IMG/VR virus record: IMGVR_UViG_3300028800_000057
DNA: 64,000 nucleotides
Source: a virus
Lineage: Duplodnaviria > Heunggongvirae > Uroviricota > Caudoviricetes
Reading direction: 5' to 3' (one strand)
This document shows positions 4,222 through 55,721 of the stretch, in pieces (position 1 is the stretch's first letter; each line of letters opens with the position of its first letter). The translations under genes and the position numbers were made by a program. The notes under the pieces are model-generated. The model saw only the letters and a list, made by a program, of their open reading frames with translations. It searched no databases and was not told the origin of the DNA.

Positions 4222-5232
4222 TCACTCTTCTCCGTCATAGTCGCCTTCTTCGGTCGCCTTATTGATGATCCCGGTGAGGATGCCAGCCATATCTTGGTGG
4301 TACCTCAGCCAGTTCTTCCAGGGGCGGTCTTGACCACCCGCGTATGAAGGCTTCCATAGGTTACCCCGACCACGGTACCCGTTCACGAGATCAAACCAGA
4401 CCATCTCGGCTACGCCCGACAGGAACCCAGGTAACTCATTAAGTTGAACCGCTCCTTCGAGTGCCATGAGCCAGTGGGACCCTAACCCGAGGCCGCACTC
4501 ATCTCTAATGCATCGGGATAAGTGGTGGTCCCATCGACGAAGGGTCATAGAAGACGCACCTTGAATCAAGCTCCGAATCGAGTATAGGTCATCCCCATTG
4601 AGCATCGCCTCTGACCTATCATGGACCGTTGTGAGGGTGTCGAGGGAGATTGCCGATTCTAATACCTTCCGGCATTCGACCCAATAGTCGCACAAGAGGC
4701 TCTTCAAGCTATCTAGGGTTGTAGGGAAGTCACCACTCCAAGACTTGAAGGGGCTGACCAGTACCGACTGCCACACGTCCTCCCGGATCATGGCCACCTG
4801 AACTCGCACATTCCGTATCCCAGATGTACGAGGAAGGTCTTCTGGCTTTGAGGCCGTAGGTGCCTCCTTGACGTGCCGTTTCTCCTCTCCGTAGCACCAG
4901 TGCCCGGGAACAAGGAGGCGCTCTTCCCAAGTGGCTTCCCAGAGCTGGTCAAAGTCCATATCCCGAGTCACCGCGATGTCATGCCAATGGTTCTCCCCGA
5001 CACTCAGCTCAAACATGTCCGTATGCAGCCCTTGGACCCAAAGACGCTTGAACACGTCATCCTTGACGTCATCCAACCTTCCGTAATCGTTATAGGTTCC
5101 TTGTACTGGGAATGTTCTGGGCAAGTACTTCGACGAGTAGTCACACGTTGCCTCCCCTAGGGTTGCCCGATGGTGCTCCGACACGAGGATAGCTAGAAGT
5201 CGTTGAGAGTGCACCCGGGGTGGAGCTTCCAC
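4222..5232 (-). CDS. Hypothetical protein
   Basis: 336-aa ORF; stop overlaps start of the 4010-4225 ORF. Confidence 0.75.
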   Translation of the reverse strand: MEAPPRVHSQRLLAILVSEHHRATLGEATCDYSSKYLPRTFPVQGTYNDYGRLDDVKDDVFKRLWVQGLHTDMFELSVGENHWHDIAVTRDMDFDQLWEATWEERLLVPGHWCYGEEKRHVKEAPTASKPEDLPRTSGIRNVRVQVAMIREDVWQSVLVSPFKSWSGDFPTTLDSLKSLLCDYWVECRKVLESAISLDTLTTVHDRSEAMLNGDDLYSIRSLIQGASSMTLRRWDHHLSRCIRDECGLGLGSHWLMALEGAVQLNELPGFLSGVAEMVWFDLVNGYRGRGNLWKPSYAGGQDRPWKNWLRYHQDMAGILTGIINKATEEGDYDGEE

Positions 5233-5909
5233 TTCCTATGAGTACAGACTTGGTCGTAGTGGCGCGTAACTCAAGTGAGATGGCCCTAGCCCAGCAGAAG
5301 CTCATCCTTTGGGTTGAAGCTAGGATTGAAGTCGAGAAGGCGCTACTTGCCGAGGCTGAGGTCAAGCTTGCCAAAGCCAAGGACATGAAGCAGAGAACCA
5401 CCACCTACGCCAACCGCGTTATGGTAGCCCGAGGGAGCGTGCAGTACTACGAGAAGATCAAGTTGGCTCTGCAGGCTGGGTACTGCATTGTCCCAAACTT
5501 CCCCATCGAGCTCATTGCCATTCGTACGAAGAAGACTGAGCCTACTCTGAGGGAGCACACCAATGAGCAGAAGGCAATGATGCTTGCACCCGGCGAGGGT
5601 CGGTACGTGGACCCTATTCCGAAGATGTCCACTCGAGTCGAAACCGAAGGCGAGAAGACCAAGAGGGTTCGCCATGCGGATTACTTCCGAGAGGTTACGT
5701 TCCCGGCGAGCCTAGCTCGTATCGAGATTCTTGAGGACCTCGACCGGGCTCAAAAGCTCAAGCTATTCGATGCCATTGGGATCTTACCCAGTACTCGACG
5801 CAAGCCTGACCCCATGCTGATTGGTCAGATCTTCCACAAGCGCGGACCGTACAGTGTCAAGACTGTCTCGTTCCTGATCGCTTGGTGGATCGATACAGCT
5901 ACCCTGTGA
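5220..5909 (+). CDS. Hypothetical protein with N-terminal coiled coil
   Basis: 229-aa ORF. Confidence 0.75.
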   Translation: MELPLPMSTDLVVVARNSSEMALAQQKLILWVEARIEVEKALLAEAEVKLAKAKDMKQRTTTYANRVMVARGSVQYYEKIKLALQAGYCIVPNFPIELIAIRTKKTEPTLREHTNEQKAMMLAPGEGRYVDPIPKMSTRVETEGEKTKRVRHADYFREVTFPASLARIEILEDLDRAQKLKLFDAIGILPSTRRKPDPMLIGQIFHKRGPYSVKTVSFLIAWWIDTATL

Positions 5910-9166: not shown

Positions 9167-9919
9167 TTACTTGACTTTATACCACCATCGCTTGGGGCTA
9201 GAAAAGATGTCTCTCCTACCACTCAGGGTATTCGAGACTGATGACCTGCGCTGAGGTGCCAGGTTGTTTACATCAAGTCGAGTGCAGATAGTATCGAAGT
9301 CAATTGTGTCACCCCCCATAACATAGATGATGCGTTCGACAAGAGTCTGTGGCTCAGAGTTAGGTGTCCTTGGTCGTGGAGTAAACCTACCAGCCCTAGG
9401 TGGAGTTGCTTGCGGCGGCGGTGGTGGCGGGTCCAAGACAACTACAGCCTGCTCGCGTTTTTTCTTTGGTAGCTTACTTGCTAGCTCCTCCAAGCCCAAT
9501 GCCTCAAGCTCTTCAACACTTAGTTTGGATAATGCCCGCTCCTGAGCCGCCTTTTTAGCCTTTAGCGGCTCCTTCGCCTTGCGTCTCTCCAACGACTTCA
9601 GGTCTGAAATAGACCCCACTACACCCACATCAAGCTTGAACCCAACTAAGAAAGAAGCCCTAAGCTTCTTCGAGGCGGGTCGAGGAGATATAACCATCAC
9701 CTCTCCGTTCACAGGGTTCCTACCGAGCCTCTCCTCTCTTGGTGGGGTATCTACAAGACGAATCCTTAGTACATTCGGGATGTTAACCACCCCATCTCTC
9801 TTCAAGGACCGTTCAAGTACTGTCTGCTGGGCCACCAAAAACGCCCTCACCGCGGTCTTTGTTACCTGGAACTCCCCAAGTTCAGCCTTAATCTCAGTGA
9901 TGAAGTCGGCATTAATCAT
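9167..9919 (-). CDS. HU/IHF-like DNA-binding protein fused to Pro-rich linker and C-terminal winged-helix-like domain
   Basis: R.GRNP.NGE.M.I arm motif (REERLGRNPVNGEVMVISPRPASKKLRASF). Confidence 0.8.
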   Translation of the reverse strand: MINADFITEIKAELGEFQVTKTAVRAFLVAQQTVLERSLKRDGVVNIPNVLRIRLVDTPPREERLGRNPVNGEVMVISPRPASKKLRASFLVGFKLDVGVVGSISDLKSLERRKAKEPLKAKKAAQERALSKLSVEELEALGLEELASKLPKKKREQAVVVLDPPPPPPQATPPRAGRFTPRPRTPNSEPQTLVERIIYVMGGDTIDFDTICTRLDVNNLAPQRRSSVSNTLSGRRDIFSSPKRWWYKVK

Positions 9920-14271: not shown

Positions 14272-14631
14272 TCACCATCGAACTGTGCAGGCCTTCATAA
14301 ATAGCCCGCAACAGACAACTCCGGGAACCTGCTTCATACCTACTGGATTGGTCGCCTCGAACTCCGTCGCCGACCAATCGCTCATGCATGCAAAGAAACC
14401 ATGCCCGCGGGTCTGAATATCGGTGAAACCACTGTACCTGAGTGCACGTCGGGTATCAGCCTCGTTTGTCCAGGGCATCATCCAAAGAATGAGAATGATG
14501 ATCGATATTAGGTTGAGGAGGACTTTCATGCCCATCCGGTACACCGATATTGACGAATTATATGGAAAGTAGTTGACTGGTTTTCCAGAGTATGCGAGTA
14601 TCAACGGTGTTGGAGAAGTAGTTGACACCAA
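14272..14631 (-). CDS. Small membrane-anchored protein (start probably ATG 14530)
   Basis: Hydrophobic N-terminus; G.VCCGL.KAC motif. Confidence 0.6.
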   Translation of the reverse strand: MVSTTSPTPLILAYSGKPVNYFPYNSSISVYRMGMKVLLNLISIIILILWMMPWTNEADTRRALRYSGFTDIQTRGHGFFACMSDWSATEFEATNPVGMKQVPGVVCCGLFMKACTVRW

Positions 14632-14651
14632 TCGTCCACCGATTCTAGACT
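14622..14651 (+). promoter_or_regulatory. Sigma70-type promoter for the tracr/cas12 transcript
   Basis: TTGACA (14622)-N18-TAGACT (14646), followed by ATCAGG. Confidence 0.55.
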
Positions 14652-14656
14652 TTTAT

Positions 14657-14760
14657 CAGGGGACCTTCAACCCGTCATGTACGGGGTCCACCCCTAAAGC
14701 GAGGAACAAGTTCACTCGCTAACTGCCGAATCTTCAGTGATACGGCCCCACTTACTCGGT
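14657..14760 (+). ncRNA. Candidate tracrRNA
   Basis: CCTTCAA (14664-70) complements repeat nt 30-36; CCCCACTTACTC (14746-57) complements repeat nt 17-28 (one G:U); several stem-loops lie between them. Confidence 0.7.
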
Positions 14761-14856
14761 CAAGTCTCGATGGACGATTGGTGGCAACAACTCTACAACA
14801 TAGTGGGAATAAGCATAAAGCGAGGGTTACGACCACTCGCTGGAAAGGTAGCCTAC

Positions 14857-16596
14857 GTGGCAACCAAGAAGAAAATAGAGGAGATCAAGAAACCTGAGCT
14901 GACCGACGCTGATAAGGAGTGGGCCAGTGGGGAAGTTTACAAGCTCCTTGTAAAGTACTATCAGACGGCGGATCAACTAGGTCTGAAACCCAAGAAGCAA
15001 CCAAAAGTTTCAGTATACCTGTACTGCGGTTGTCCAATGGCCAAGTATGGAAGAGATACCCTAGGACGAATCCCTCTTGAGATCATCCAAGATCGTAACC
15101 TTGAAGGGGTCGAGGAAGCTCTGTTCAACCTTCCAGGTGCACTAACGCTCCCCATAGTATTCTCGGATCTTCCTAAGGAGGAGGCGGCCACCCTAAAGAA
15201 CCAGTTCTACGGGGTAGCCAGGACGCTCACTATGGGCCTCCAAGCCGTGTACCGACGTCGGTTCCAGGGTCCAATCGAAGGGAACTTGGAGACTGCAGCG
15301 TATCGAACCTGCAATGAAGGGATGGATGAGTATCTAGAAAGTCTAGATGACCCGCTTCTGAGGTTGATGCGGCCATCGTCAAACATAGTAGCGACTGCCA
15401 GTAAGGACTACTCCACCAGGTATGGCAACTGGGAGGCTAGAAATTCACAGGATAAGTCCCCACCATGGCCGAAGGTGACTGGGTTCCCAATCAAAACCGA
15501 CTGCTTTAGTATCGAGATCACTACCCCAGAAGCCTACCGAAAGCGTTGTCCTTCTGCCCCGGCCGAATTACCCAAAGAAATCGTCATGCTTAGTCTCAGA
15601 GTACTAGCTGGGGCGAGCAAGGGTCAACGAGTAGCACCTCTTGTTGCCCGAGTCCAAGTTCGAGGTAGCTCTGACTGGGCAACCCTCAAGAGGGCCATAA
15701 GTGGTACGAAGGGGTACAAGACAACTCAAGGTAGATTGGTTCTTGATGAAGGGAAGTGGGTGTTCAAGCTGGGGTTCAAGAAACCCCGACCCGAACCTTC
15801 AAAGGTCAAGACTGCGCTGGTAGTAATCCCGGCGCTCAATGACTTGGCGATGATTTACTCACATGAAGGTGATTACCTTCGCGGCAAGTACAAGGGGGCT
15901 GGGGAGGTCCTTCCGAAGGGGATAGACTCCTCGGGTTTCATCCACCTCAAGAAAATGTATGACTCCATGAGGTCAGCCCGAGCGCGCCACTTGAACTTCG
16001 TTGGTCGAGGTGCGAGAGGGCATGGTCAGAAGAGATTCCGACTATCACTAGAAGTAGTCGAGGGTAAAGAGACCGATAGGACCAACACCTGGATGGAGCA
16101 GCAGGCCTCCCATCTAGCCAGGTACGCCAATAGTATCGGTGCTATCGTCGGGATCGACGATATGGTTTCAGTCCCTACTGCTCCGGATCGCAAGATAGAA
16201 CGTCTCCTACGACGTTTTCCCTGGTGTACCTTCCGTGACAAGATCGCATGGGCTTGCAAGAAACATGGGGTCCCAACCAAGGTAATCAAACACTCTGGAG
16301 TCAAAGACTGCCCCATGTGCGGCGGGGAGAAGACCCTAGTTGACTCTGCTAACTATGATGGTCGTCCCGAACAGTGGTGCAGGACTGGTTGTGGAGCCGT
16401 AGCCCCAAAGAACCTATTCAGAGCCTGGAGACTGTTCAAGGTTCTTCTGGTCACTGATGCCGATAGCCTGGCGGTAGTTGATCAGGGCTTCAGAAATAAG
16501 GTTGAGGGTCTAATGCATATTCGTACACGAAACAACTCACCTGAAAGTATGAACCTTATGGGTGAACAACCTGATACCGCAGATGCAGCTGAATAG
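14857..16596 (+). CDS. cas12: Cas12f/TnpB-like type V effector with degenerate RuvC (probably nuclease-dead); about 579 aa from GTG 14857, ORF open from 14737
   Basis: KWVF.LGF, GARGHGQKR, IVGIDDM (E to D), FPW..FRDKIAWACKKHGVP, CPMCG/CRTGCG zinc finger; RuvC-I reads ALVVIPAL (no Asp), RuvC-III reads PKNLFRA (D to N); adjacent to array; SD-like GGAAAGG before GTG. Confidence 0.8.
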   Translation: MATKKKIEEIKKPELTDADKEWASGEVYKLLVKYYQTADQLGLKPKKQPKVSVYLYCGCPMAKYGRDTLGRIPLEIIQDRNLEGVEEALFNLPGALTLPIVFSDLPKEEAATLKNQFYGVARTLTMGLQAVYRRRFQGPIEGNLETAAYRTCNEGMDEYLESLDDPLLRLMRPSSNIVATASKDYSTRYGNWEARNSQDKSPPWPKVTGFPIKTDCFSIEITTPEAYRKRCPSAPAELPKEIVMLSLRVLAGASKGQRVAPLVARVQVRGSSDWATLKRAISGTKGYKTTQGRLVLDEGKWVFKLGFKKPRPEPSKVKTALVVIPALNDLAMIYSHEGDYLRGKYKGAGEVLPKGIDSSGFIHLKKMYDSMRSARARHLNFVGRGARGHGQKRFRLSLEVVEGKETDRTNTWMEQQASHLARYANSIGAIVGIDDMVSVPTAPDRKIERLLRRFPWCTFRDKIAWACKKHGVPTKVIKHSGVKDCPMCGGEKTLVDSANYDGRPEQWCRTGCGAVAPKNLFRAWRLFKVLLVTDADSLAVVDQGFRNKVEGLMHIRTRNNSPESMNLMGEQPDTADAAE

Positions 16597-16604
16597 AGGT
16601 TACA

Positions 16605-17315
16605 ATGCCAACCAAGCCCACATTTGTTGATCCTTACAAGGTCACTGGAAGTACTAAACAGATCATAACTAGGCTACTCAAACTCAAGCCGAAGGACTTT
16701 CCAGACGAAGACCAAGCTTTGGACCTAATTCGAAGGCTTAAGGCCGATGCTGATCAGGGTGAGATGCGGCTAATAGCCTATCTTACCGCCTACGAGAAAA
16801 GCGAGCTCTGGAAAAAGTCGGCAGTCCAGTGCCATACCTTCAATGGGTGGTTGAAGTACTATCAAACATCGCTCCCTGATGTGAGCAGGTATAACAACGG
16901 CAAGGAGGCCCTACTCGAGTTTGGGGTTGAAGCTTGTTTGGTCTACAGCATTCGAGCGCTGTCCAAAGTGGTTAGCCTACCAAAAGTGCATCGGCATACC
17001 TTCGTCAAGGAGGAACTTGAACCGGGAGTGGAAACCCGTAGGTTTCCACTAAGTGACGTCACCGTTGGTAGTCGTGTTAAGGAGTACCGTAAGGCTCATG
17101 GTTTAGTCAGTAATGTACCACGAAACCCGAAGAGCGACCTAGCAACTCAACTCGACGAAGCCCGGGAGAGGATCTGCCAGCTGAAAGAAGAAGTCCGAGA
17201 ACTCAAGAAAGAGCGGGACGACCTTAAAAAACGACTGGCCGAATATGACCCCCAAAACCTAATCACTAAGAAACCTGTACCACGGACCAGCAAGGTATCA
17301 AGGAAGGCCGCTTGA
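16605..17315 (+). CDS. Accessory protein co-located with cas12; DUF3102-like N-terminus plus C-terminal coiled coil
   Basis: 8 nt after cas12 stop; YL.AYE...LWK.....TF..WL motif; heptad LDEARERICQLKEEVRELKKERDDL. Confidence 0.7.
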   Translation: MPTKPTFVDPYKVTGSTKQIITRLLKLKPKDFPDEDQALDLIRRLKADADQGEMRLIAYLTAYEKSELWKKSAVQCHTFNGWLKYYQTSLPDVSRYNNGKEALLEFGVEACLVYSIRALSKVVSLPKVHRHTFVKEELEPGVETRRFPLSDVTVGSRVKEYRKAHGLVSNVPRNPKSDLATQLDEARERICQLKEEVRELKKERDDLKKRLAEYDPQNLITKKPVPRTSKVSRKAA

Positions 17316-17540
17316 TTTACGAGGGGTGAGGTGCTTAGCTTCACCCCTTACTCGCTCGCAGGACTATTCTTGAGCGAGTAAGTCCATGATCCTTGACAAA
17401 TTGAGTGCGGAAAGCGAGAAGGGTACTTACCCGTAATGGGGGCTCCTTCCCTAACATACTTGGGAATCAAAAGGTGCTTTTAGTACCCTCTCGCAAGAAG
17501 CATGTGAAGTGGTGGAATTGATTGATTACTGCAGTAACGT

Positions 17541-18834
17541 GTGTTGATCCGATTATGAGTAGGTGGGGTTTGAAGGACTGTCGACGCAGAGAAGCGTGCT
17601 CAACGCATTCGTAGGTGTTGATCCGATTATGAGTAGGTGGGGTTTGAAGGGAGTTGCTCGTCAGTCCCTTCTGGGAGGGCTAGGCGGGGTGTTGATCCGA
17701 TTATGAGTAGGTGGGGTTTGAAGGTGACTCGCTGCTATTCCCGGTCGTCTCGGCACTTGGCGGTGTTGATCCGATTATGAGTAGGTGGGGTTTGAAGGGG
17801 CGAGGACGACAACGACGTTATGTCGTTGATCTCGAGTGTTGATCCGATTATGAGTAGGTGGGGTTTGAAGGTCTGAACTCGGTTGGGACTCGGTCAGGTA
17901 CTTGGTCAGTGTTGATCCGATTATGAGTAGGTGGGGTTTGAAGGCAGGTCATCAGAGTCCAGGTGTTGATCCGATTATGAGTAGGTGGGGTTTGAAGGAA
18001 TCCGACAAGCGGCCTCGCCGTAGACCTCACTTACGGTGTTGATCCGATTATGAGTAGGTGGGGTTTGAAGGTTCGATTTTGAGGCCGTCAATCTTGGCTA
18101 GCGCGTTGTGTTGATCCGATTATGAGTAGGTGGTTCTTGAAGGGATCAAGCCCGATGAAGGTGTTACGCCGGGCATGAACGTGTTGATCCGATTCTGAGT
18201 AGGTGGTGCTTGAAGGGCCGTTAGCTAGCCCCATCGCATAGTGACTAGGGTTGTGTTGATCCGATTATGAGTAGGTGGGGTTTGAAGGGTTATGTCAGCC
18301 ACACGCCAACGTGGCCCGTTCTCGCGTGTTGATCCGATTATGAGTAGGTGGGGTTTGAAGGATTCGGCAAAGGGAGGAAAAGGGGGCCGGATTTCGCGTG
18401 TTGATCCGATTATGAGTAGGTGGGGTTTGAAGGGGCTCACGAGCATTAGGATGTCGGCGCGGGTGGGATTGTGTTGATCCGATTCTGAGTAGGTGGTTCT
18501 TGAAGGTCGCCTCGCTTGGCATAGTCAATTTTCGCCAATAGGTGTTGATTCGATTCTGAGTAGGTGGGGTTTGAAGGCAATCTATCGATTGGAACCATTG
18601 CTAGTCGACTTCTTGTGTTGATCCGATTATGAGTAGGTGGTTCTTGAAGGTTCGTCGGAGAGTTCGAGCACAACGGCCCAAATGCGTGGTTGATCCTATT
18701 CTGAGTAGGTGGTGCTTGAAGGATGCATTGACTACGACCAGCAACCCGCAATAGCCAAGTTCTGACCCCATTATCAGTAGGTGGGGTTTGAAGGGCCAGG
18801 TGTTGATCTGATTCTGAGTAGGTGGTATTGAAGG
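17541..18834 (+). CRISPR. CRISPR array, 19 repeats / 18 spacers; repeat GTGTTGATCCGATTATGAGTAGGTGGGGTTTGAAGG (36 nt)
   Basis: Repeats 1-8 identical; degeneration from 18108 onward places the leader on the cas12 side; spacers 35-38 nt except one of 18 nt and one of 5 nt. Confidence 0.98.
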
Positions 18835-19262
18835 GGGCCCCACATCACCTCGTAGAGCTCGTCAAAGCCTTCCGCCAGGGTTGGGTCCACGAACCTTTGA
18901 GCCGTGATGAGGATGCCCACGCGCGGGACGAATGCCTTCCCTGTCCGTTGAGCATTCCTCTCCATAGACTGCTGAACATTGGATCTGAAATGGTATACGA
19001 TGACCCGTGCGGAGTAGTAACGCGCCAGAGCTACCAACTCAGCCCGTTCTTCAACACTCGGGTTCGTGTTGTCCACTACTAGGGACTTCCCTGCCTCGAG
19101 AGCCTCCCGAATGAGCAGAGTCTGTCTCACAGACTTTGGAGTCCGATTCTTGCGACTACGAGTCATCAAGTCCTTGCTCACAAGGACATAGTCGGGAAAG
19201 AGCACCTTTTGAAAGGTGCTCTTTCCCGATGCCTGCAGGCCAACAAGAATGATGAGATCCAT
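18774..19262 (-). CDS. AAA_33 / polynucleotide-kinase-like P-loop protein
   Basis: LIILVGLQASGKST Walker A; VVDNTN; 3' end overlaps terminal CRISPR repeats. Confidence 0.85.
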   Translation of the reverse strand: MDLIILVGLQASGKSTFQKVLFPDYVLVSKDLMTRSRKNRTPKSVRQTLLIREALEAGKSLVVDNTNPSVEERAELVALARYYSARVIVYHFRSNVQQSMERNAQRTGKAFVPRVGILITAQRFVDPTLAEGFDELYEVMWGPLQYHLLRIRSTPGPSNPTY

Positions 19263-19266
19263 CGAA

Positions 19267-20019
19267 CTACTTGAGATTCTGCAGTATTTGAGTCACAAGA
19301 TCAACATATTCGTCCCCATAGGGTAGATTCCGGTCGATGTAGATCTTCCGTCTTTGAGCAATACTGGATGTCTTGGTCTTGGGGTTGAATCCAGTTTTCT
19401 CGAAACCATGCCAATAGAGCCCGGTCCCACGCTTCTGCCATAGAGGAACGTTGTTGAAGTTGATCCCGTTCTTGTGCAGTATTTCGTTCTTGGTAGAGAA
19501 GGTGGCCCCTTCGAGCCCCTCCGTCGCCTGCTTGGCGGTATGCCCGGATCTCCTCATTGTCCAGTAGCACCAGGAGTTGATACAGCACCGGGAAGCGTCC
19601 AGCTGCCTCCAACGGAAGTAGTCCAGCACATTGGATGTCAACGGCCCAACCCATAACCGACTGTCGAAGTGAGCCGCCTGACCTAGTTGAATCGAGAAGG
19701 TCGAGGAAGCTATCCCTGCAGAGACCGACACCAGCTTCTCCACCTCGCGGCCAAATAGATCCGTATCGCGAGGCAATAGAACAGAAATCTCGTCACTCTC
19801 CGTGAACGCATACAACCCTCCAAGCTCGACCAAGAGAATCGCCGCTGTCTCGACCATAGACTCGTGAAACTTCACGTCAAATGGGTGATCCATCCCACGA
19901 GTCAGCTTCGTAAAGCTCCGCCCATCAACGCGGATGATCGTGTAAGTATCGGGGAGAACCTCCAATGAGTGGTAGTACTCAAGCCGGCGCATCCTCGCTT
20001 CTAGGGTGTCGCTTTTCAT
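19267..20019 (-). CDS. thg1: tRNA(His) guanylyltransferase Thg1-like protein
   Basis: RVDGRSFTKLT, ESDEISVL, FDSR, YF.WRQ.DA.R..IN, FN.VP.WQKRG motifs. Confidence 0.92.
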   Translation of the reverse strand: MKSDTLEARMRRLEYYHSLEVLPDTYTIIRVDGRSFTKLTRGMDHPFDVKFHESMVETAAILLVELGGLYAFTESDEISVLLPRDTDLFGREVEKLVSVSAGIASSTFSIQLGQAAHFDSRLWVGPLTSNVLDYFRWRQLDASRCCINSWCYWTMRRSGHTAKQATEGLEGATFSTKNEILHKNGINFNNVPLWQKRGTGLYWHGFEKTGFNPKTKTSSIAQRRKIYIDRNLPYGDEYVDLVTQILQNLK

Positions 20020-33515: not shown

Positions 33516-34247
33516 TCACCCCAGGTCAAACGTCATCTCATCCAACCACGACATGTCATCACCTATAGACGATGACACCGGAGCAGAGGGAGAGGCACCC
33601 TCAGACGAGTGCAATGGTACAAGCTCAGGTAAGACCGAAGCATGCTCGTCCCCAGGCTCAGGCGTGCCACCCTCCAATACCTGCAGATAGGCATCAGCGC
33701 CCCCAGATGAGCTCAGCGAGGGTTCAGTTGCGACTACGACAGGTGCTACAGACTCAGTTGCTACCATAGTAGTCGTACCTGACAACGCCTTCTCTAGTTG
33801 GATACGAGCCCAGTCCGATACAGTACGACCATCTGCACAAGCTCGAGTAACCATCGCTTCAAGCTGTGTCCCTGTTACCCGAACCTTCAATACCTTGTTC
33901 CGTAACTCTTTACCACCCCTCCCAGTCCCAATGTATGCGTCCCCACCTTCCTTATACCCAGCCACAATGTTGTAACCAACATTCGGGTCACGAGATTTGT
34001 ATCGGTCAATAGCATCCCTCTCAGCTACCAACAGTGTGGCTCGATCAGGGTAGGCCTCTATCTCCTCAACTGCAAAGGCATCAGGCCCTTGCCTCTTGAT
34101 AGCTCCATGAAGCCCAGTAGAAACATTACCCTTGCTATCATGCACATGTCCAGCCCACCGTAGTGCTAATGGCTGAGTAGTACGCCCGATGTAGACCTTC
34201 CCTGTAGTCTTGTTCCGTACTAAGTATATGATTCCGTACGCGGGCAT
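33516..34247 (-). CDS. GIY-YIG endonuclease fused to a ribbon-helix-helix-like module and disordered tail
   Basis: GIIYLVRNKTTGKVYIGRT, AER.AI.....GYN; LKVRVT....EAM...A...G.TVSDWAR. Confidence 0.85.
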   Translation of the reverse strand: MPAYGIIYLVRNKTTGKVYIGRTTQPLALRWAGHVHDSKGNVSTGLHGAIKRQGPDAFAVEEIEAYPDRATLLVAERDAIDRYKSRDPNVGYNIVAGYKEGGDAYIGTGRGGKELRNKVLKVRVTGTQLEAMVTRACADGRTVSDWARIQLEKALSGTTTMVATESVAPVVVATEPSLSSSGGADAYLQVLEGGTPEPGDEHASVLPELVPLHSSEGASPSAPVSSSIGDDMSWLDEMTFDLG

Positions 34248-34334
34248 CCCTCTGTGGTACACCGGAAAGTGGCAGGGCGGACGCCTGGCCCGCCTCATTC
34301 TTTGTACCACGCTAATAGGTTAGTAATATCAAGT

Positions 34335-34408
34335 ACTTGGAATGTACCACACGGAAAGTGGCGGGCCTTCCAGCCAGCCTCCCACTTTCCGTGTGGTACA
34401 TTCCAAGT
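34335..34408. repeat. Perfect 27-bp inverted repeat with extra GGAAAGTGGC copies
   Basis: ACTTGGAATGTACCACACGGAAAGTGG-N20-CCACTTTCCGTGTGGTACATTCCAAGT; related copies near 34264 and 34418. Confidence 0.9.
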
Positions 34409-34911
34409 GTGGTACACGGAAAGTGGCAGGCTGAACAGACGGACAACCGCCGCAAATACCAAACCCACCCGGCCCAATTTTCCTAAATAACTACACACAC
34501 TATAATACCACACAATTCACGGTGCTTCGCACAAGTGACCTGTGATGGATTACACACCTACCTGCAGCCCCCACACACAGTTGTCTTGCAATTCATGTGA
34601 GTTCAGTGCAGCACCATTCACATTCACAGTGAATCACACAAGGAAGTGACACTGCGCCTCTGGCGCCTTGTGATTCACTGTGTAAAGTGTTGAGGTAGGA
34701 TAGTCACACCAGAACTAGGCGCGGAGCGCCGGGTTAGGGTTGGATATGTAGGCAGAGTATCGGTTCGTGACGATACCGCTCTGAAGTATTGTCCAAACCA
34801 CATGTAGTTATCGGTGACGTTCGTGCCCGTAAAAGTATGAACAGATACTATGCCTACATCAGAAGTATCAATTCTTGTTGAGATCAGAGCGAGTGGTGCG
34901 TAATAGGAGGC

Positions 34912-43996: not shown

Positions 43997-44797
43997 CTAT
44001 TCGAGATCTGCTTCCCGGATGAGTCTAGTCATCTTCAGGAGTGCTCGGGCTTTAGTTTGACTGACTAGAGGTTCTGAGACGCCCCAGGAGGTGGCGAGAT
44101 CCGCGAACTTGTCACCGGAGGCTAGGGCCTCGATGACTTGTCGTTCTCGGTCGCTGAAGGGGATTGAGTCGACTTGTTGGAGAATGTTCCGGAAGTGGAG
44201 GGTTTTGTCTTGAGTGGGTGAGTTGGACTGGATAACAGTGTACTCAATGTCCTCAAACCTAGGTTTGTCATCGGCCTTCATCAATCGGCGGGGGATCTTG
44301 GACTCGACTCGGATCTCATCCCATACTTGACCTCGAATACGGAGGCGGGCGTAACCGGGGAATGATGCCTCCTCGCCGGTGAAGCGGGTGCAGGCGTCCC
44401 ATAGGCCGATGGTCCCGAAGTGTTCGAGGGTCTTGAGGTCGTAGCTGTGGCACAGCTTGCGGATGAGGATTCGGGCTTCGAGGTTGACCAGGTGCAGGTT
44501 AGCTTGGAAGCGTTCCTGGAGTGGATCTCGGGGCTTGATGGGTTCTGGGGCGCCGATGGTGATGAACCTAGCAGGGTGGACGATAGCCTGGACCTTGAAC
44601 TCACTCATATCGATTACCAAGCCCTTACGGCGGGAGTGGTAAATCTTCATCGAGTCGGAGCGAGAAATCTTCCCTGTGTGGGTGATGACGGTTTCCCGGT
44701 GAAGCCCAGTCATCTTTGAGATCTGGCGCAGGCTAAACCCTTGGTTGCGAAGTCGTGCGGCTTCGTCAAGGCGTTTGGGGTCAGAGAAGTTGGCCAT
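43997..44797 (-). CDS. FliA/WhiG-like sigma-70 family factor with an extra N-terminal HTH
   Basis: Region 2 GTIGLWDA..RF.....F.GYA.LRIRGQ.WDEIR; region 4 SDRERQVI...LA..WGVSE..VSQ...RAL; N-terminal G.SLRQIS..TGLHR.TV. Confidence 0.85.
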   Translation of the reverse strand: MANFSDPKRLDEAARLRNQGFSLRQISKMTGLHRETVITHTGKISRSDSMKIYHSRRKGLVIDMSEFKVQAIVHPARFITIGAPEPIKPRDPLQERFQANLHLVNLEARILIRKLCHSYDLKTLEHFGTIGLWDACTRFTGEEASFPGYARLRIRGQVWDEIRVESKIPRRLMKADDKPRFEDIEYTVIQSNSPTQDKTLHFRNILQQVDSIPFSDRERQVIEALASGDKFADLATSWGVSEPLVSQTKARALLKMTRLIREADLE

Positions 44798-49162: not shown

Positions 49163-49900
49163 CTAGGCCCCTACCATCTCCTTCCACCGGTTCACGATCA
49201 TCTCAGTGAAGGGTATCGATGGGGTCCCGTAGCAACCTAGTGCCCAGGCGTCGTTGACTTCGACTAGGAGGGTGCGACCGTCGTCGGTGACACCAAGGTC
49301 GAGAGAGTAGCCGACGGGAGCGTCCTTGAAGCACTTGATAGCTTGAGTGGCCACATCCAAGTTGGGGAAGATAGAGCAGTCCCCCTTGTAGTGTCGGCAG
49401 GCGAAGATGAGGCCTTGGTGGATGAGAACTCGGTACTCGGAGACGAAGTTGACGACGTTGGATTCCCAGATAGGAGTGTTTTCGTCGAAGGTGTTCAATC
49501 GGATCTGGTCTTCGATGCTTCCTGAGTAGAGGAAGCCATTGAATAGCTTGGTCCCGCCCCGGGGCTTAACAAAGATGGATCGCGAGCTGGTGCGCCGTCT
49601 TAGGTAGCCCATGGTAGATGGGTTGATGTGACGGCCGAAGATCCCTTGGAGGCTTGGTGGGTAGTCTTGGACTTCGGGGAGAGGAACTCCTAGAAGGTTC
49701 AGGGCCGCTACTACGTGGGGGACCCCTCCGTGAACGAGGGTATTCTTGGTCAGCTCGCCTTGGATGTCACGGGTGAACGTGTATAGTTGGGTGGGTATGT
49801 CCAAGATCCTGCAGCCAGACCAAACAGCGAAAGCTGTCTCATCAATGGGCATCTTGGTTTCAAGGGACGCTTGGATGAAGGCCTTTTCAATACCGAGCAT
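49163..49900 (-). CDS. ATP-grasp domain protein (DUF4343/R2K-like)
   Basis: FVKP...KLF.G, FVSEYRV, YSLDLGV......LVEVND..ALG.YG. Confidence 0.85.
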   Translation of the reverse strand: MLGIEKAFIQASLETKMPIDETAFAVWSGCRILDIPTQLYTFTRDIQGELTKNTLVHGGVPHVVAALNLLGVPLPEVQDYPPSLQGIFGRHINPSTMGYLRRRTSSRSIFVKPRGGTKLFNGFLYSGSIEDQIRLNTFDENTPIWESNVVNFVSEYRVLIHQGLIFACRHYKGDCSIFPNLDVATQAIKCFKDAPVGYSLDLGVTDDGRTLLVEVNDAWALGCYGTPSIPFTEMIVNRWKEMVGA

Positions 49901-51038: not shown

Positions 51039-52526
51039 ATGTCTGCTGATCTGATTCAGAGAGTAGGGCTTTGCCTCAAAAGGGTTGACTTTTGAATAAG
51101 TTCTATTACGCTGGAATCAGGTCTCATTCCTTCGACCAAAAGCGAGGGTTACGACCACTCGCTAAAGCCTCCGGTTAGGAGGGTCTCATACTTTTGAGGC
51201 AAAGAGAGAGTAGCGTCAAGATTCATCGAGGCATCAGCGCCTATCTCCGTAAAGGAAGTTGACGGAAGGATTGAAGTCTCTGGGCCTTATGACAAGATGA
51301 AGGACTTGATCCCTTACCTACGTGGGAAATTCGAGTATCGCGGTCATGACCACACTTGGTGGGAATCCAAAGCGAAAATGACCCCTCTGAAGATTAAGAA
51401 TCTTCAGAAGAAGGTTGATGCGGTCAATGGGAAATTTGGCCCCAACCCTGTGAAGGTGGAAGAGCCAGCGGATGCTAAGGCGGTCAGGATTGAGGAAGCC
51501 AAAAAGCTGCTCAGTAAAGCGATCCATATACGGGTTACTGGATTGATCTTTAGTCCCATCGGGGTCGATGGTGCTCAATTGACAGGAGCTCTTACTGATC
51601 TGAGGGTGTTGATTAACATGTCTGGTGGGGATTATGGCCCAGAGTTCTCGAAGTTCTATGTGCAGAATATCAAACCAGTAGAGTTTAGTAAGCTCCTGGA
51701 CGCGATTGAGGACCAGGGTAGGCTTGTGGCCAAGTCCCTTGCTGATCTGTCTAGTATAATTCCGCGCAAGTTCCCGAGCTTGCAGATTAACGTGGGGACC
51801 AATAACGGGAGCTACTTGTTCGTAGTCTCTGGAAAGACCTATGACTTCAAGGATGATATCAAAAAGCTGGTACCGGTAACATTCAATGGTCAAGGGAGTT
51901 TCTGGTGGGCTCCAGTCCATCAGGTTAAGGAAGCTCAAGTAAAGAAGCTAATTGAGTATCTCGAGAGTGAAGAGCGGGCGAGAGCTGAGAAATGGAAGGC
52001 TGAAAAGGTGGAGAGGACACCTACCGAGAAAGCGAAGAGGCCTAATCGTAGAGGGGATCATTGCTTAAACTGCGGGGCGTGGGTAGATGCTGGTGATGGT
52101 TACTTAGTAGACCATTGGGACAATGATGAGGACGAGCTAGTCTATAAGGTGGTTCACTCTGATCCTAGTGTCTGCGCTGAAGTCAAAGAGGCGGCCAGAA
52201 TACGCCGTGAAAAGGCTAATACGAAGCGTGAGGCTCAGGGAAACTTGTATAAGCTTTGTGCAAAGTCAGAGTACTATGTACAAGGTACAGGACATCGACC
52301 CCCAGGTGAGCAGATCTGGATTGACAAGACTGCACTCGGATATGGGGGTGGGACGTGGGTAGTTATTGAACCCGGTGATAACTACTTCTGGTATGTCAAG
52401 AATAACGGGGCTGACGGGGACGATTGGTCCAACAACAATGTCTCGACAGGTGGTGCTGGGGCCATTGGATATCGACTTCCGATGACAGAAGAAGCGCGCG
52501 TTCTCATTGACGTGGCAAAGGAGTAG
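51039..52526 (+). CDS. Gene split by a 147-bp insertion; restored product about 446 aa (MSADLIQRVASRFIEAS...), downstream part annotated from 51297
   Basis: Removing 51067-51213 fuses ATG 51039 in frame with the 51297-52526 ORF. Confidence 0.75.
51067..51204. mobile_element. 138-bp MITE-like insertion
   Basis: 14-bp TIRs CTTTGCCTCAAAAG (51069-82) / CTTTTGAGGCAAAG (51191-204); 9-bp direct repeat AGAGAGTAG (51058-66, 51205-13). Confidence 0.85.
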
Positions 52527-55252: not shown

Positions 55253-55392
55253 TTGATTTTGTAAGTTGGGTGAGTTATGATCTCATTGAATCAGGATACA
55301 TTCTTGATTTATTGGTTTTGTTCTTTCGACCAAAAGCGAGGATTATGATCACTCGCTAATGTCCCAGGTTAGGGAGTCCTTTTAGGGCAAAG
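55253..55392 (+). ncRNA. Promoter plus tracr-like structured RNA homologous to 51085-51204
   Basis: TTGATT-N17-TATGAT, GAATCAGG, TTCGACCAAAAGCGAGG-attatgatc-ACTCGCTAA, GGTTAGG loop, GGCAAAGAG. Confidence 0.6.
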
Positions 55393-55394
55393 AG

Positions 55395-55721
55395 GTGTCT
55401 GACTATCTTGAAACCAAGCATGAGTTGAGGGAACTCAAGAATACCTTCGTAGCAGTCACGACTCGAGTAGAAGCGGTGGATGCCTACTCACATGAGGTCG
55501 CTGAGCGCAGTCATGACCTCAAGGAGACGGTGGCTCAGCTCTCGGGGTACCTGGCTGGGATACTTCCGAAGGCTGGTGTGAAGGTCCCAGGGGCTGAGCC
55601 AGGGGCTATCAGCATGGAGATTGTCTCTGACCCACTTCCCATGAACGAGAAGCGTCAACGCCCGGTGAACGTCCACACCCGGGTGCCGGCACCCAAGCCC
55701 AATGACAGTTCAGGTCGATAG
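55395..55721 (+). CDS. Hypothetical coiled-coil protein
   Basis: 108-aa ORF followed by a terminator. Confidence 0.65.
   Translation: MSDYLETKHELRELKNTFVAVTTRVEAVDAYSHEVAERSHDLKETVAQLSGYLAGILPKAGVKVPGAEPGAISMEIVSDPLPMNEKRQRPVNVHTRVPAPKPNDSSGR

Follow-up and report, generated by a model that had tools for sequence, protein, structure and literature searches.

Cas12f1, the effector of subtype V-F1 (structures 8j12/7wju of AsCas12f, 9i8y of SpCas12f1 and 9nzq of OsCas12f), is a protein of 400–530 amino acids (aa) that cuts DNA with an intact D-E-D triad; it has no helix-turn-helix (HTH) partner, and its trans-activating CRISPR RNA (tracrRNA; CRISPR, short palindromic repeats that are clustered and regularly interspaced) is usually encoded between the gene and the array. 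Cas12m (V-M), a small bacterial effector whose RuvC site is non-canonical, achieves interference through binding and silencing (PMC10442227), processes its own CRISPR RNA (crRNA), and has neither a tracrRNA nor an HTH partner. Cas12k, of the V-K CRISPR-associated transposons, has a naturally inactive RuvC site, uses a tracrRNA and is always linked to Tn7-like tnsB, tnsC and tniQ genes. The sigmaE-linked dCas12f proteins (Hoffmann et al., Nature 2026, PMC13472631; structures 9n9c and 9n9m) are nuclease-dead descendants of Cas12f1 on Bacteroidota chromosomes that bind DNA under RNA guidance; they are C-terminally truncated (∼365 aa), use a single chimeric guide without a tracrRNA and have a sigma factor as partner, often with HTH genes nearby, and a CRISPR-linked dCas12f cluster in Bacteroidota, also of truncated proteins with single guides, is described in the same paper. 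Lastly, type V-U24 has been delineated by a noncanonical RuvC-I site and an HTH protein of unreported function (Altae-Tran et al. 2023, PNAS, PMC10691335, in one sentence and a supplementary figure). Here we compare with these systems a locus within a 64,000-nucleotide (nt) stretch of viral DNA (Caudoviricetes; IMG/VR record IMGVR_UViG_3300028800_000057), hereafter the window, and describe by computation its parts, their conservation and the selection acting on them, its RNA structure, the covariation of its repeats and anti-repeats, the substitutions in its RuvC site, its natural targets and the 5′ flank that these share.

We conclude, with moderate confidence, that a phage encodes here a type V CRISPR system, complete and working, which belongs to the Cas12f1 lineage and binds its targets without cutting them. 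All of its parts lie on the plus strand: a tracrRNA-like structured RNA of ∼180 nt upstream of the effector (14619–14800), the open reading frame (ORF) of a 579-aa Cas12f1-like effector with an apparently non-catalytic RuvC site (14857–16596), an accessory gene encoding 236 aa that begins 8 nt past the effector stop (16605–17315), a leader between the accessory stop and the array (17316–17540), and a CRISPR array of 19 repeat units of 36 nt each (17541–18835). The original prediction, made from the sequence alone, had named a phage-borne, Cas12f-like system with an incomplete D-E-D triad, a tracr-like RNA, an effector of 579–619 aa, a coupled accessory gene, a 19-repeat array and no adaptation or tns genes. 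The evidence given below bears out these points, and the check that had been proposed, spacer mapping with a search for a 5′ protospacer-adjacent motif (PAM), returned natural targets.

The effector ORF opens at 14737 (619 aa); since the homologues begin at the GTG codon at 14857, after the ribosome-binding site GGAAAGG (14842–14848), we take the protein to be 579 and not 619 aa long. Searched alone it gave weak matches (NCBIfam guided_TnpB, E 3.7e-7; Cas12f1 9i8y in the PDB, 4.9e-6). An exhaustive homologue search yielded 119 cluster representatives, and a family profile built from 40 of them matched 9i8y at 6.6e-37, OsCas12f and AsCas12f at ∼1e-36 to 1e-35, Un1Cas12f at 1e-19, Cas12m at 1.9e-7 and 3.7e-4, and sigma-linked dCas12f at 1e-3. 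The AlphaFold2 model (predicted local distance difference test, pLDDT, 87.6; predicted template-modelling score, pTM, 0.81) is of a full-length protein with a zinc finger and a C-terminal helix, and its top Foldseek match was AsCas12f (2e-16; template-modelling score, TM, by target 0.68–0.72), followed by SpCas12f1, OsCas12f and dCas12f (TM by target 0.76 for the last), with Cas12m2 (1.5e-9) and Cas12k (9e-6) far weaker. Cas12f1 thus supplies the best matches in profile and fold (TM by target 0.64–0.72), and it shares with the window system the GHG motif, the zinc finger, tracrRNA use, a gene with the array downstream of it and a 5′ PAM rich in T and C; it differs from it in size and in cutting DNA with an intact triad, which the window effector lacks, and here an HTH-like partner is present and the tracrRNA lies upstream of the gene. 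The GHG motif and the CxxC...CxxxC zinc finger (C485, C488, C508 and C512) are invariant, and a ratio of nonsynonymous to synonymous substitution rates (dN/dS) of 0.07–0.16 indicates purifying selection. In PHROGs there was no match for the effector, the accessory or seven of the eight large window ORFs. The effectors of the close family finish in ...AAE (window 16585–16593) and most accessories in ...KAA or RKAA (17304–17312).

To our knowledge, every Cas12 and TnpB enzyme that has been characterised needs the RuvC-I aspartate for its two-metal catalysis. When the family is aligned to 9i8y by hidden Markov model, the catalytic Asp of VDLG, the first residue past the conserved Val, corresponds to Ile324 and the next residue to Pro325, a proline that never varies within the close family. 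Aligned with the RuvC-II Glu (E422 of Un1Cas12f, a position obtained by counting) is Asp434, likewise invariant there and followed by a nearly invariant Asp435. Asn519 stands opposite the RuvC-III Asp, and the 11 closest proteins have N/V/V/T/N/I/D/D/D/D/L at this position; the TSQ motif reads (G)VK. Two of the three RuvC carboxylates are therefore missing and the third has changed from Glu to Asp, so that the original motif readings, including those of the GHG motif and the zinc finger, were right in substance. In the wider family, about 109 of 110 representatives have another residue in place of the RuvC-I Asp; most of them have His/Arg-Arg at RuvC-I and retain Glu and Asp at the other two positions. 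Proteins with Ile or another non-acidic residue followed by Pro (the Pro type; 18 cluster representatives) are monophyletic with a support of 0.98, and the RuvC-II Glu has been lost in every one of them, the position varying as D/S/H/V/A across the wider Pro-type clade. Loss at RuvC-I and RuvC-II together with a free RuvC-III column fits relaxed selection on a dead site, and the series of substitutions looks like the stepwise decay of a site that had gone out of use.

An effector that is still a nuclease or nickase, with a non-canonical site around Asp434-Asp435 and further residues acting on DNA or RNA, or that recruits a host or phage nuclease, itself or through the accessory, so that the target is destroyed, is a reading that we regard as unlikely. 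The constancy of these two residues speaks for it, as do the distant relatives with His/Arg-Arg at RuvC-I and an otherwise retained site, which has been termed ‘noncanonical’, and the rearranged RuvC sites that exist among TnpB proteins according to PMC10691335. On the other side, the freedom of the RuvC-III column and the spread of residues at RuvC-II in the Pro-type clade argue against a conserved alternative site, and the accessory carries no nuclease domain. The requirement for the RuvC-I Asp in every characterised enzyme tells in the same direction. Binding without cleavage, which we prefer, would place the effector alongside Cas12m and dCas12f, which likewise stay on their DNA without cleaving it.

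It had been claimed originally that the combination fits none of the known dead type V systems cleanly; type V-U24, as it is described in PMC10691335, does match. Both have a noncanonical RuvC-I site in a CRISPR-linked Cas12, arrays being found here beside the close family and in the related loci L021–L023, and the conserved downstream partner in the window is HTH-like (Z 4.8–6.4, modest scores). The comparison was made by description and not by sequence, and on that footing the effector family is very probably the uncharacterised subtype V-U24. Its kind is accordingly known and the family was probably catalogued before, which makes it less unprecedented than the original prediction had it. 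The literature searched holds no further mention of V-U24 and no description of the upstream tracrRNA, carriage by phages and megaphages, decay at three catalytic positions, the candidate PAM or the natural targets.

The remaining systems share fewer features with the window locus. Cas12m resembles it as a small effector with a non-canonical RuvC site that silences by binding; it is distant in both profile and fold (E 1.9e-7 and 1.5e-9 at best), and it differs in the crRNA processing, host and missing partner described above. The sigmaE-linked dCas12f proteins share nuclease death, RNA-guided binding, nearby HTH genes and fold, whereas no sigma factor stands beside the window effector, which is full length and has a CRISPR array with a tracrRNA instead of a single guide. 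Cas12k shares the inactive RuvC site, tracrRNA use and a short conserved 3′ end of the repeat, but its fold match is weak and it is linked to transposon genes. The phage type V effectors CasPhi (Cas12j), Cas-lambda and Cas12r are likewise compact, lack adaptation genes and are thought to act in conflicts between mobile elements, although they belong to other Cas12 lineages and no architecture of tracrRNA plus HTH partner has been reported for them. CasPhi and Cas-lambda are characterised nucleases. Cas12r of the Thermus Lalka phages interferes with plasmids and phages (bioRxiv 10.64898/2026.04.20.719267).

In the related loci, 300–400 gene-free nt precede every effector and hold a conserved RNA element. 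An RNAalifold alignment of eight distinct loci gave 57 pairs, 26 of them with compensatory double changes, and the window segment 14608–14856 folds with z = −6.8 against shuffles. The closing stem of the RNA pairs 14618–14640 with 14772–14800 over more than 20 bp, and a conserved hairpin, AGCGAGG-N8-CACTCGCT, lies at 14698–14720 (the scaffold hairpin motif is also given as AGCGAGG-N8-CACUCGCU). The anti-repeat is split. Segment a (CCTTCAA, 14664–14670) is complementary to the final 7 repeat nt (−8.3 kcal/mol) and segment b (CCCCACTTACTC, 14746–14757) to the 12 nt just upstream of these (−22.5 kcal/mol); neither is paired within the consensus structure, and each forms its best duplex with the cognate repeat. 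Similar duplexes form in loci L001, L010, L006 and L008, and the observed duplex energies were reached in 0 of 300 and 1 of 300 shuffle controls. A window-wide scan for anti-repeat duplexes did not discriminate, the anti-repeat being split: among its high ranks were chance duplexes rich in GC and additional copies of the repeat read on the minus strand.

With eight copies of the element as its basis, a covariance model located it immediately 5′ of the effector in three loci, L020, L023 and L022 (66, 59 and 35 bits), that had been left out of the model and whose effectors are 26–38% identical to that of the window. The repeats of L022 and L023 are unrelated to the window repeat, and the anti-repeat segments there are altered to match them; in the matrix of repeat-by-tracr duplexes, cognate groups scored best in all four repeat families. 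Because the anti-repeats change with the repeat across four divergent repeat families, the identification of the upstream RNA as a tracrRNA is well supported on computational grounds; no Rfam family matches it. In many distant homologues an N-terminal peptide, G-D-L-H-S-P-x-G-E-A-K-x-H-S-A-N, coincides with the RNA recognised by the model (L022:5001–5155, L023:4902–5064 and the N-termini of P0012–P0030), and appears to be noncoding RNA read through by gene callers.

The promoter that had first been proposed probably lies inside the RNA. Its hexamers are present, TTGACA-N18-TAGACT at 14622–14651 being the best consensus match in the region (10/12), but the TTGACA at 14622 sits in the 5′ strand of the closing stem, and other loci have TGGCAC or TGGCAG in its place; since both hexamers lie within a covarying stem that must be transcribed, the working promoter is likely further upstream. 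Transcription probably starts from a candidate sigma-70-type promoter read from the sequence at 14573–14601 on the plus strand, where TTGACT (14573) is followed after 17 nt by a GAGTAT preceded by TG (14593–14601), an arrangement also present in L001 (TTGACC-N17-GAGTAT) and in similar form in L002, L005, L006 and L008. No terminator was found between the RNA and the effector gene, so the tracrRNA may be excised from the effector's mRNA leader. A second copy of the hairpin, found as an exact pattern match on the plus strand (14819–14841), stands immediately before the ribosome-binding site, the two together spanning 14819–14848; the same copy occurs in L001, and a regulatory role for it is speculative.

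The array contains 16 spacers of 35–38 nt and one shortened spacer of 18 nt, and its final two repeats are degenerate with 5 nt between them. Among close relatives the 3′ 20 nt of the repeat are kept and the 5′ half is free to vary, which fits a crRNA that retains just the 3′ handle. Related arrays range from 3 to 41 repeats (L001, 15; L010, 41; L006, 3; L021, 10; L022, 6; L023, 9), and no spacer is common to any two of them. The leader has two hairpins past the accessory stop, a conserved TTGACA (17393–17398), which is a candidate array promoter, and a long hairpin (17413–17494) with an AGCGAG...CTCGC stem; it is conserved in the window, L001, L002 and L005, and is present in reduced form in L006 and L008. 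Just 5′ of the TTGACA lies an inverted repeat with 11-bp arms (CTTACTCGCTC...GAGCGAGTAAG, 17349–17384), retained at the equivalent site of related loci with different arm sequences, which is a candidate operator for the accessory or a 3′ hairpin of the operon. A Pfam scan of the 20 window ORFs of at least 213 aa found no Cas1 or other Cas family and no Tns family, smaller ORFs of the size of Cas2 or Cas4 having been scanned only in part, and no Cas1 was found in a related 145-kb IMG/VR record either.

Two further observations touch the arrays. In two metagenome runs, X2 and X5, the leader continues on a contig straight into repeat 13 (window 17540 to 18398), with 857 nt left out; such a contig may represent an array variant that is shorter and older and does not have the 12 leader-proximal spacers, which would imply polarised spacer gain, but the joint falls within 36 identical bases and an assembly collapse is therefore equally possible. 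Upstream of the effector in L006, whose array has only 3 repeats, solitary repeat-like sequences at ∼4490–4520 and ∼5385–5400 (…GAGTAGGTAGGAACTGAAGG, shorter AATAGGAACTGAAGG) may be stand-alone cr-like RNAs.

The window DNA is present in at least 13 rhizosphere metagenome runs, and alignment of the contigs of four runs to the locus revealed protospacers for three of the plus-strand spacers. That of spacer 7 (17999–18035) lies on a 151-nt contig of run X9 with the 5′ flank CCTTC; that of spacer 9 (18144–18180) occurs in run X9 and in run X1, in the latter on a 463-nt contig with the flank ACTTC, one mismatch and a depth of 5.9 as against 10.6 for the phage; and that of spacer 13 (18434–18470) occurs in run X1 with the flank TCTTC, on contigs of 86 and 77 nt. 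Each of these contigs matches exactly one spacer and carries unrelated sequence on either side, and because the flanks differ from each other the contigs are not other arrays. On the spacer-sense strand CTTC is common to all three 5′ flanks, an agreement of four bases across independent sites for which the chance is ∼1 in 65,000. It is a candidate type V PAM, in the expected position and in agreement with the plus direction of the array; within the array the spacers follow AAGG, so that it is not itself a target. The spacer 13 protospacer is antisense within an open frame, of which 32 residues in the reverse-strand translation match the Pfam families HTH_20 (1.8e-4) and HTH_5 (4.7e-4), identifying the target gene from its sequence as an ArsR-type HTH regulator.

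Searches of other collections were negative. The window spacers had no match in INPHARED phages or PLSDB plasmids; the L010 array had none in phages, and its 40 spacers matched nothing in its own 145-kb record besides the array. Against a 145-kb IMG/VR record the window array matched in its repeats and not in its spacers, and all spacers together gave only chance partial matches of 18–19 nt to the window and the related loci. Exact IMG/VR scans with spacers 1, 2, 3 and 13 and with the sequences flanking the protospacers of spacers 9 and 7 found no match, nor did a tblastn search of phages and plasmids with the 32-aa ArsR-like peptide.

The accessory gene follows the effector in all related loci, including those of relatives at 26–38% effector identity, and is under purifying selection (dN/dS 0.15–0.20), with Trp69, Phe79, Arg95, Tyr96 and Pro148 invariant. 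Its structure model (pLDDT 82.7) comprises a helical domain of the ParB/KorB HTH type (∼48–172) and a C-terminal coiled coil (∼173–215), without the N-terminal CTPase domain of ParB. With VIA-align, residues 48–172 matched ParB 6s6h (Z 6.4), KorB 8qa8 and 1r71 (Z 5.5 and 4.9) and Spo0J (Z 4.8); clusters of the AlphaFold database pointed to DUF3102, DUF222 and ParB-HTH (E 0.04–0.4); among the Atlas features, DUF3102 came up again, together with Plasmid_parti_N. The protein matched no family of Pfam, NCBIfam or PHROGs and has no named homologue. The individual scores are modest, but since the three approaches agree, an HTH-type DNA binder is likely though not proven, and its role would be that of a co-repressor or a regulator of the locus.

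The ParB/KorB-like partner also figures in an explanation to which we assign a low probability, namely that the system is a programmable regulator, with the effector or its partner sent to host or phage promoters, so as to alter expression in the course of infection, and the hairpin reused as an operator on mRNAs of the phage. It has precedent in sigmaE-linked dCas12f and in TldR (PMC13472631), and one natural target does lie inside a regulator gene. Moreover, the plus strand of the window has four copies of the hairpin AGCGAGG-N8-CACTCGCT where 0.14 are expected: one in the tracrRNA, one in the 5′ untranslated region of the effector and two upstream of other ORFs. However, arrays of up to 41 repeats with full turnover between related phages and degenerate distal repeats resemble adaptive targeting and not a fixed regulon, and neither the L010 spacers within their own record nor the window spacers within the window find a match other than the array. 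Least probable, and in our view very unlikely, is that the upstream RNA is only a cis-regulatory leader and that the effector works with crRNA alone, like Cas12m: the missing terminator, the hairpin copy at the ribosome-binding site and the shortness of the anti-repeat segments (7 and 12 nt) are in its favour, but those segments are single-stranded and covary with the repeat in four divergent families, L022 and L023 included, and the closest solved relatives, the Cas12f1 enzymes, are all tracrRNA users. Transposon guidance of the Cas12k kind was rejected, no tnsB, tnsC or tniQ Pfam families being found around nine related loci or in 20 window ORFs, and so was a decaying relic (dN/dS 0.07–0.2).

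The extra hairpin copies are at 51141–51163, identical to the copy at the ribosome-binding site of the effector, and at 55335–55357. They belong to two paralogous elements of ∼120 nt (∼51060–51215 and ∼55290–55412), each consisting of TTCGACCAAAAGCGAGG, the hairpin and then a hairpin with a GGTTAGG loop, which precede the ORFs 51297–52526 and 55395–55721; the repeated hairpin may be a shared RNA operator. Searched as a pattern, the tracr hairpin had a single, chance match in IMG/VR (L024, without effector or array) and none in prokaryote genomes. A near-perfect 86-nt hairpin at window 34334–34419 scored 36.9 bits with the covariance model through its closing stem only, and has no tracr motifs.

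The locus is carried by a soil phage of roughly 440 kb, and the module occurs on phage contigs of 62–473 kb. The close family (50–100% identity) was found on metagenomic contigs only, some of them of 226, 443 and 473 kb, with one member on a 145-kb IMG/VR viral record (CheckV completeness 28%). All 13 distinct loci with examined gene neighbourhoods are on phage-like contigs, with Thg1-like, AAA_33 kinase and anti-Pycsar Apyc1 genes as neighbours in close relatives and large terminase, DnaB-primase, resolvase, GP88, RNA ligase and Tad2-like genes in distant ones. Neither protein nor RNA patterns found the module in 185,579 prokaryote genomes.

Taken together with the targets, a silencing mechanism can be proposed for this phage system. 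A transcript from upstream of 14619 would carry the structured tracrRNA ahead of the effector gene, and the array would be transcribed in the same direction from its own leader. The last ∼20 nt of each repeat would pair with the two separate anti-repeat segments, and the effector would bind this duplex and recognise double-stranded DNA with a 5′-CTTC PAM and a match of ∼36 nt. With a RuvC pocket that lacks the RuvC-I and RuvC-III carboxylates, the complex would stay on the uncut DNA and block transcription or replication of the target replicon, be it the host or a competing mobile element, and the co-inherited HTH and coiled-coil protein would strengthen the block or regulate the locus. We infer these steps, and with them the processing of the RNAs and the source of the spacers, from the parts described above.

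Several points weigh against binding without cleavage or against details of this scheme. Asp434 never varies in the close family, and Asp is found in the RuvC-III column of four close relatives; the effector may retain some residual or altered activity, such as RNA processing as in Cas12m. With no terminator before the effector, the upstream RNA may in part be a cis leader. The PAM is based on three protospacers only, and the targets fit silencing of host genes and interference with mobile elements alike, without distinguishing between them.

Among the other features of the window, a gene for a Thg1-like tRNA-His guanylyltransferase (19267–20019) and one for an AAA_33 kinase (18774–19262), both on the minus strand, are neighbours that several related phages conserve; the listed ORF of the kinase extends into the degenerate terminal repeats of the array. 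The window further encodes an HU-like DNA-binding domain (9167–9919), a GIY-YIG nuclease (33516–34310), a LuxR/sigma-70 region-4-like HTH protein (43997–44797) and an R2K ATP-grasp enzyme (49163–49900), and otherwise consists mostly of small unrecognised ORFs.

A bolder version of the silencing model, which we put forward tentatively and hold to be rather doubtful, is that megaphages use a tracr-dependent dead Cas12f with a ParB/KorB-like partner as an adaptive silencer of host regulators, for instance the ArsR-type gene matched by spacer 13, and of rivals, with the hairpin serving as a translational operator on the mRNA of the effector (14819) and on further phage mRNAs (51141 and 55335). If so, one protein would control both DNA targets and a small RNA regulon of the phage. 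Large arrays with wholly different spacers between related phages are combined here with a constant DNA-binding partner and no adaptation genes seen, and if the outcome is silencing and not cutting, phages would be using adaptive CRISPR interference against hosts or rivals. Tools for repression or recruitment would then also have in this effector of 579 aa a compact natural dCas12f whose tracrRNA is defined and whose 5′-CTTC PAM is short. With each of the naturally dead type V effectors Cas12k, Cas12m, dCas12f and TldR, another use for RNA-guided binding to DNA came to light, and this phage family would be a further one.

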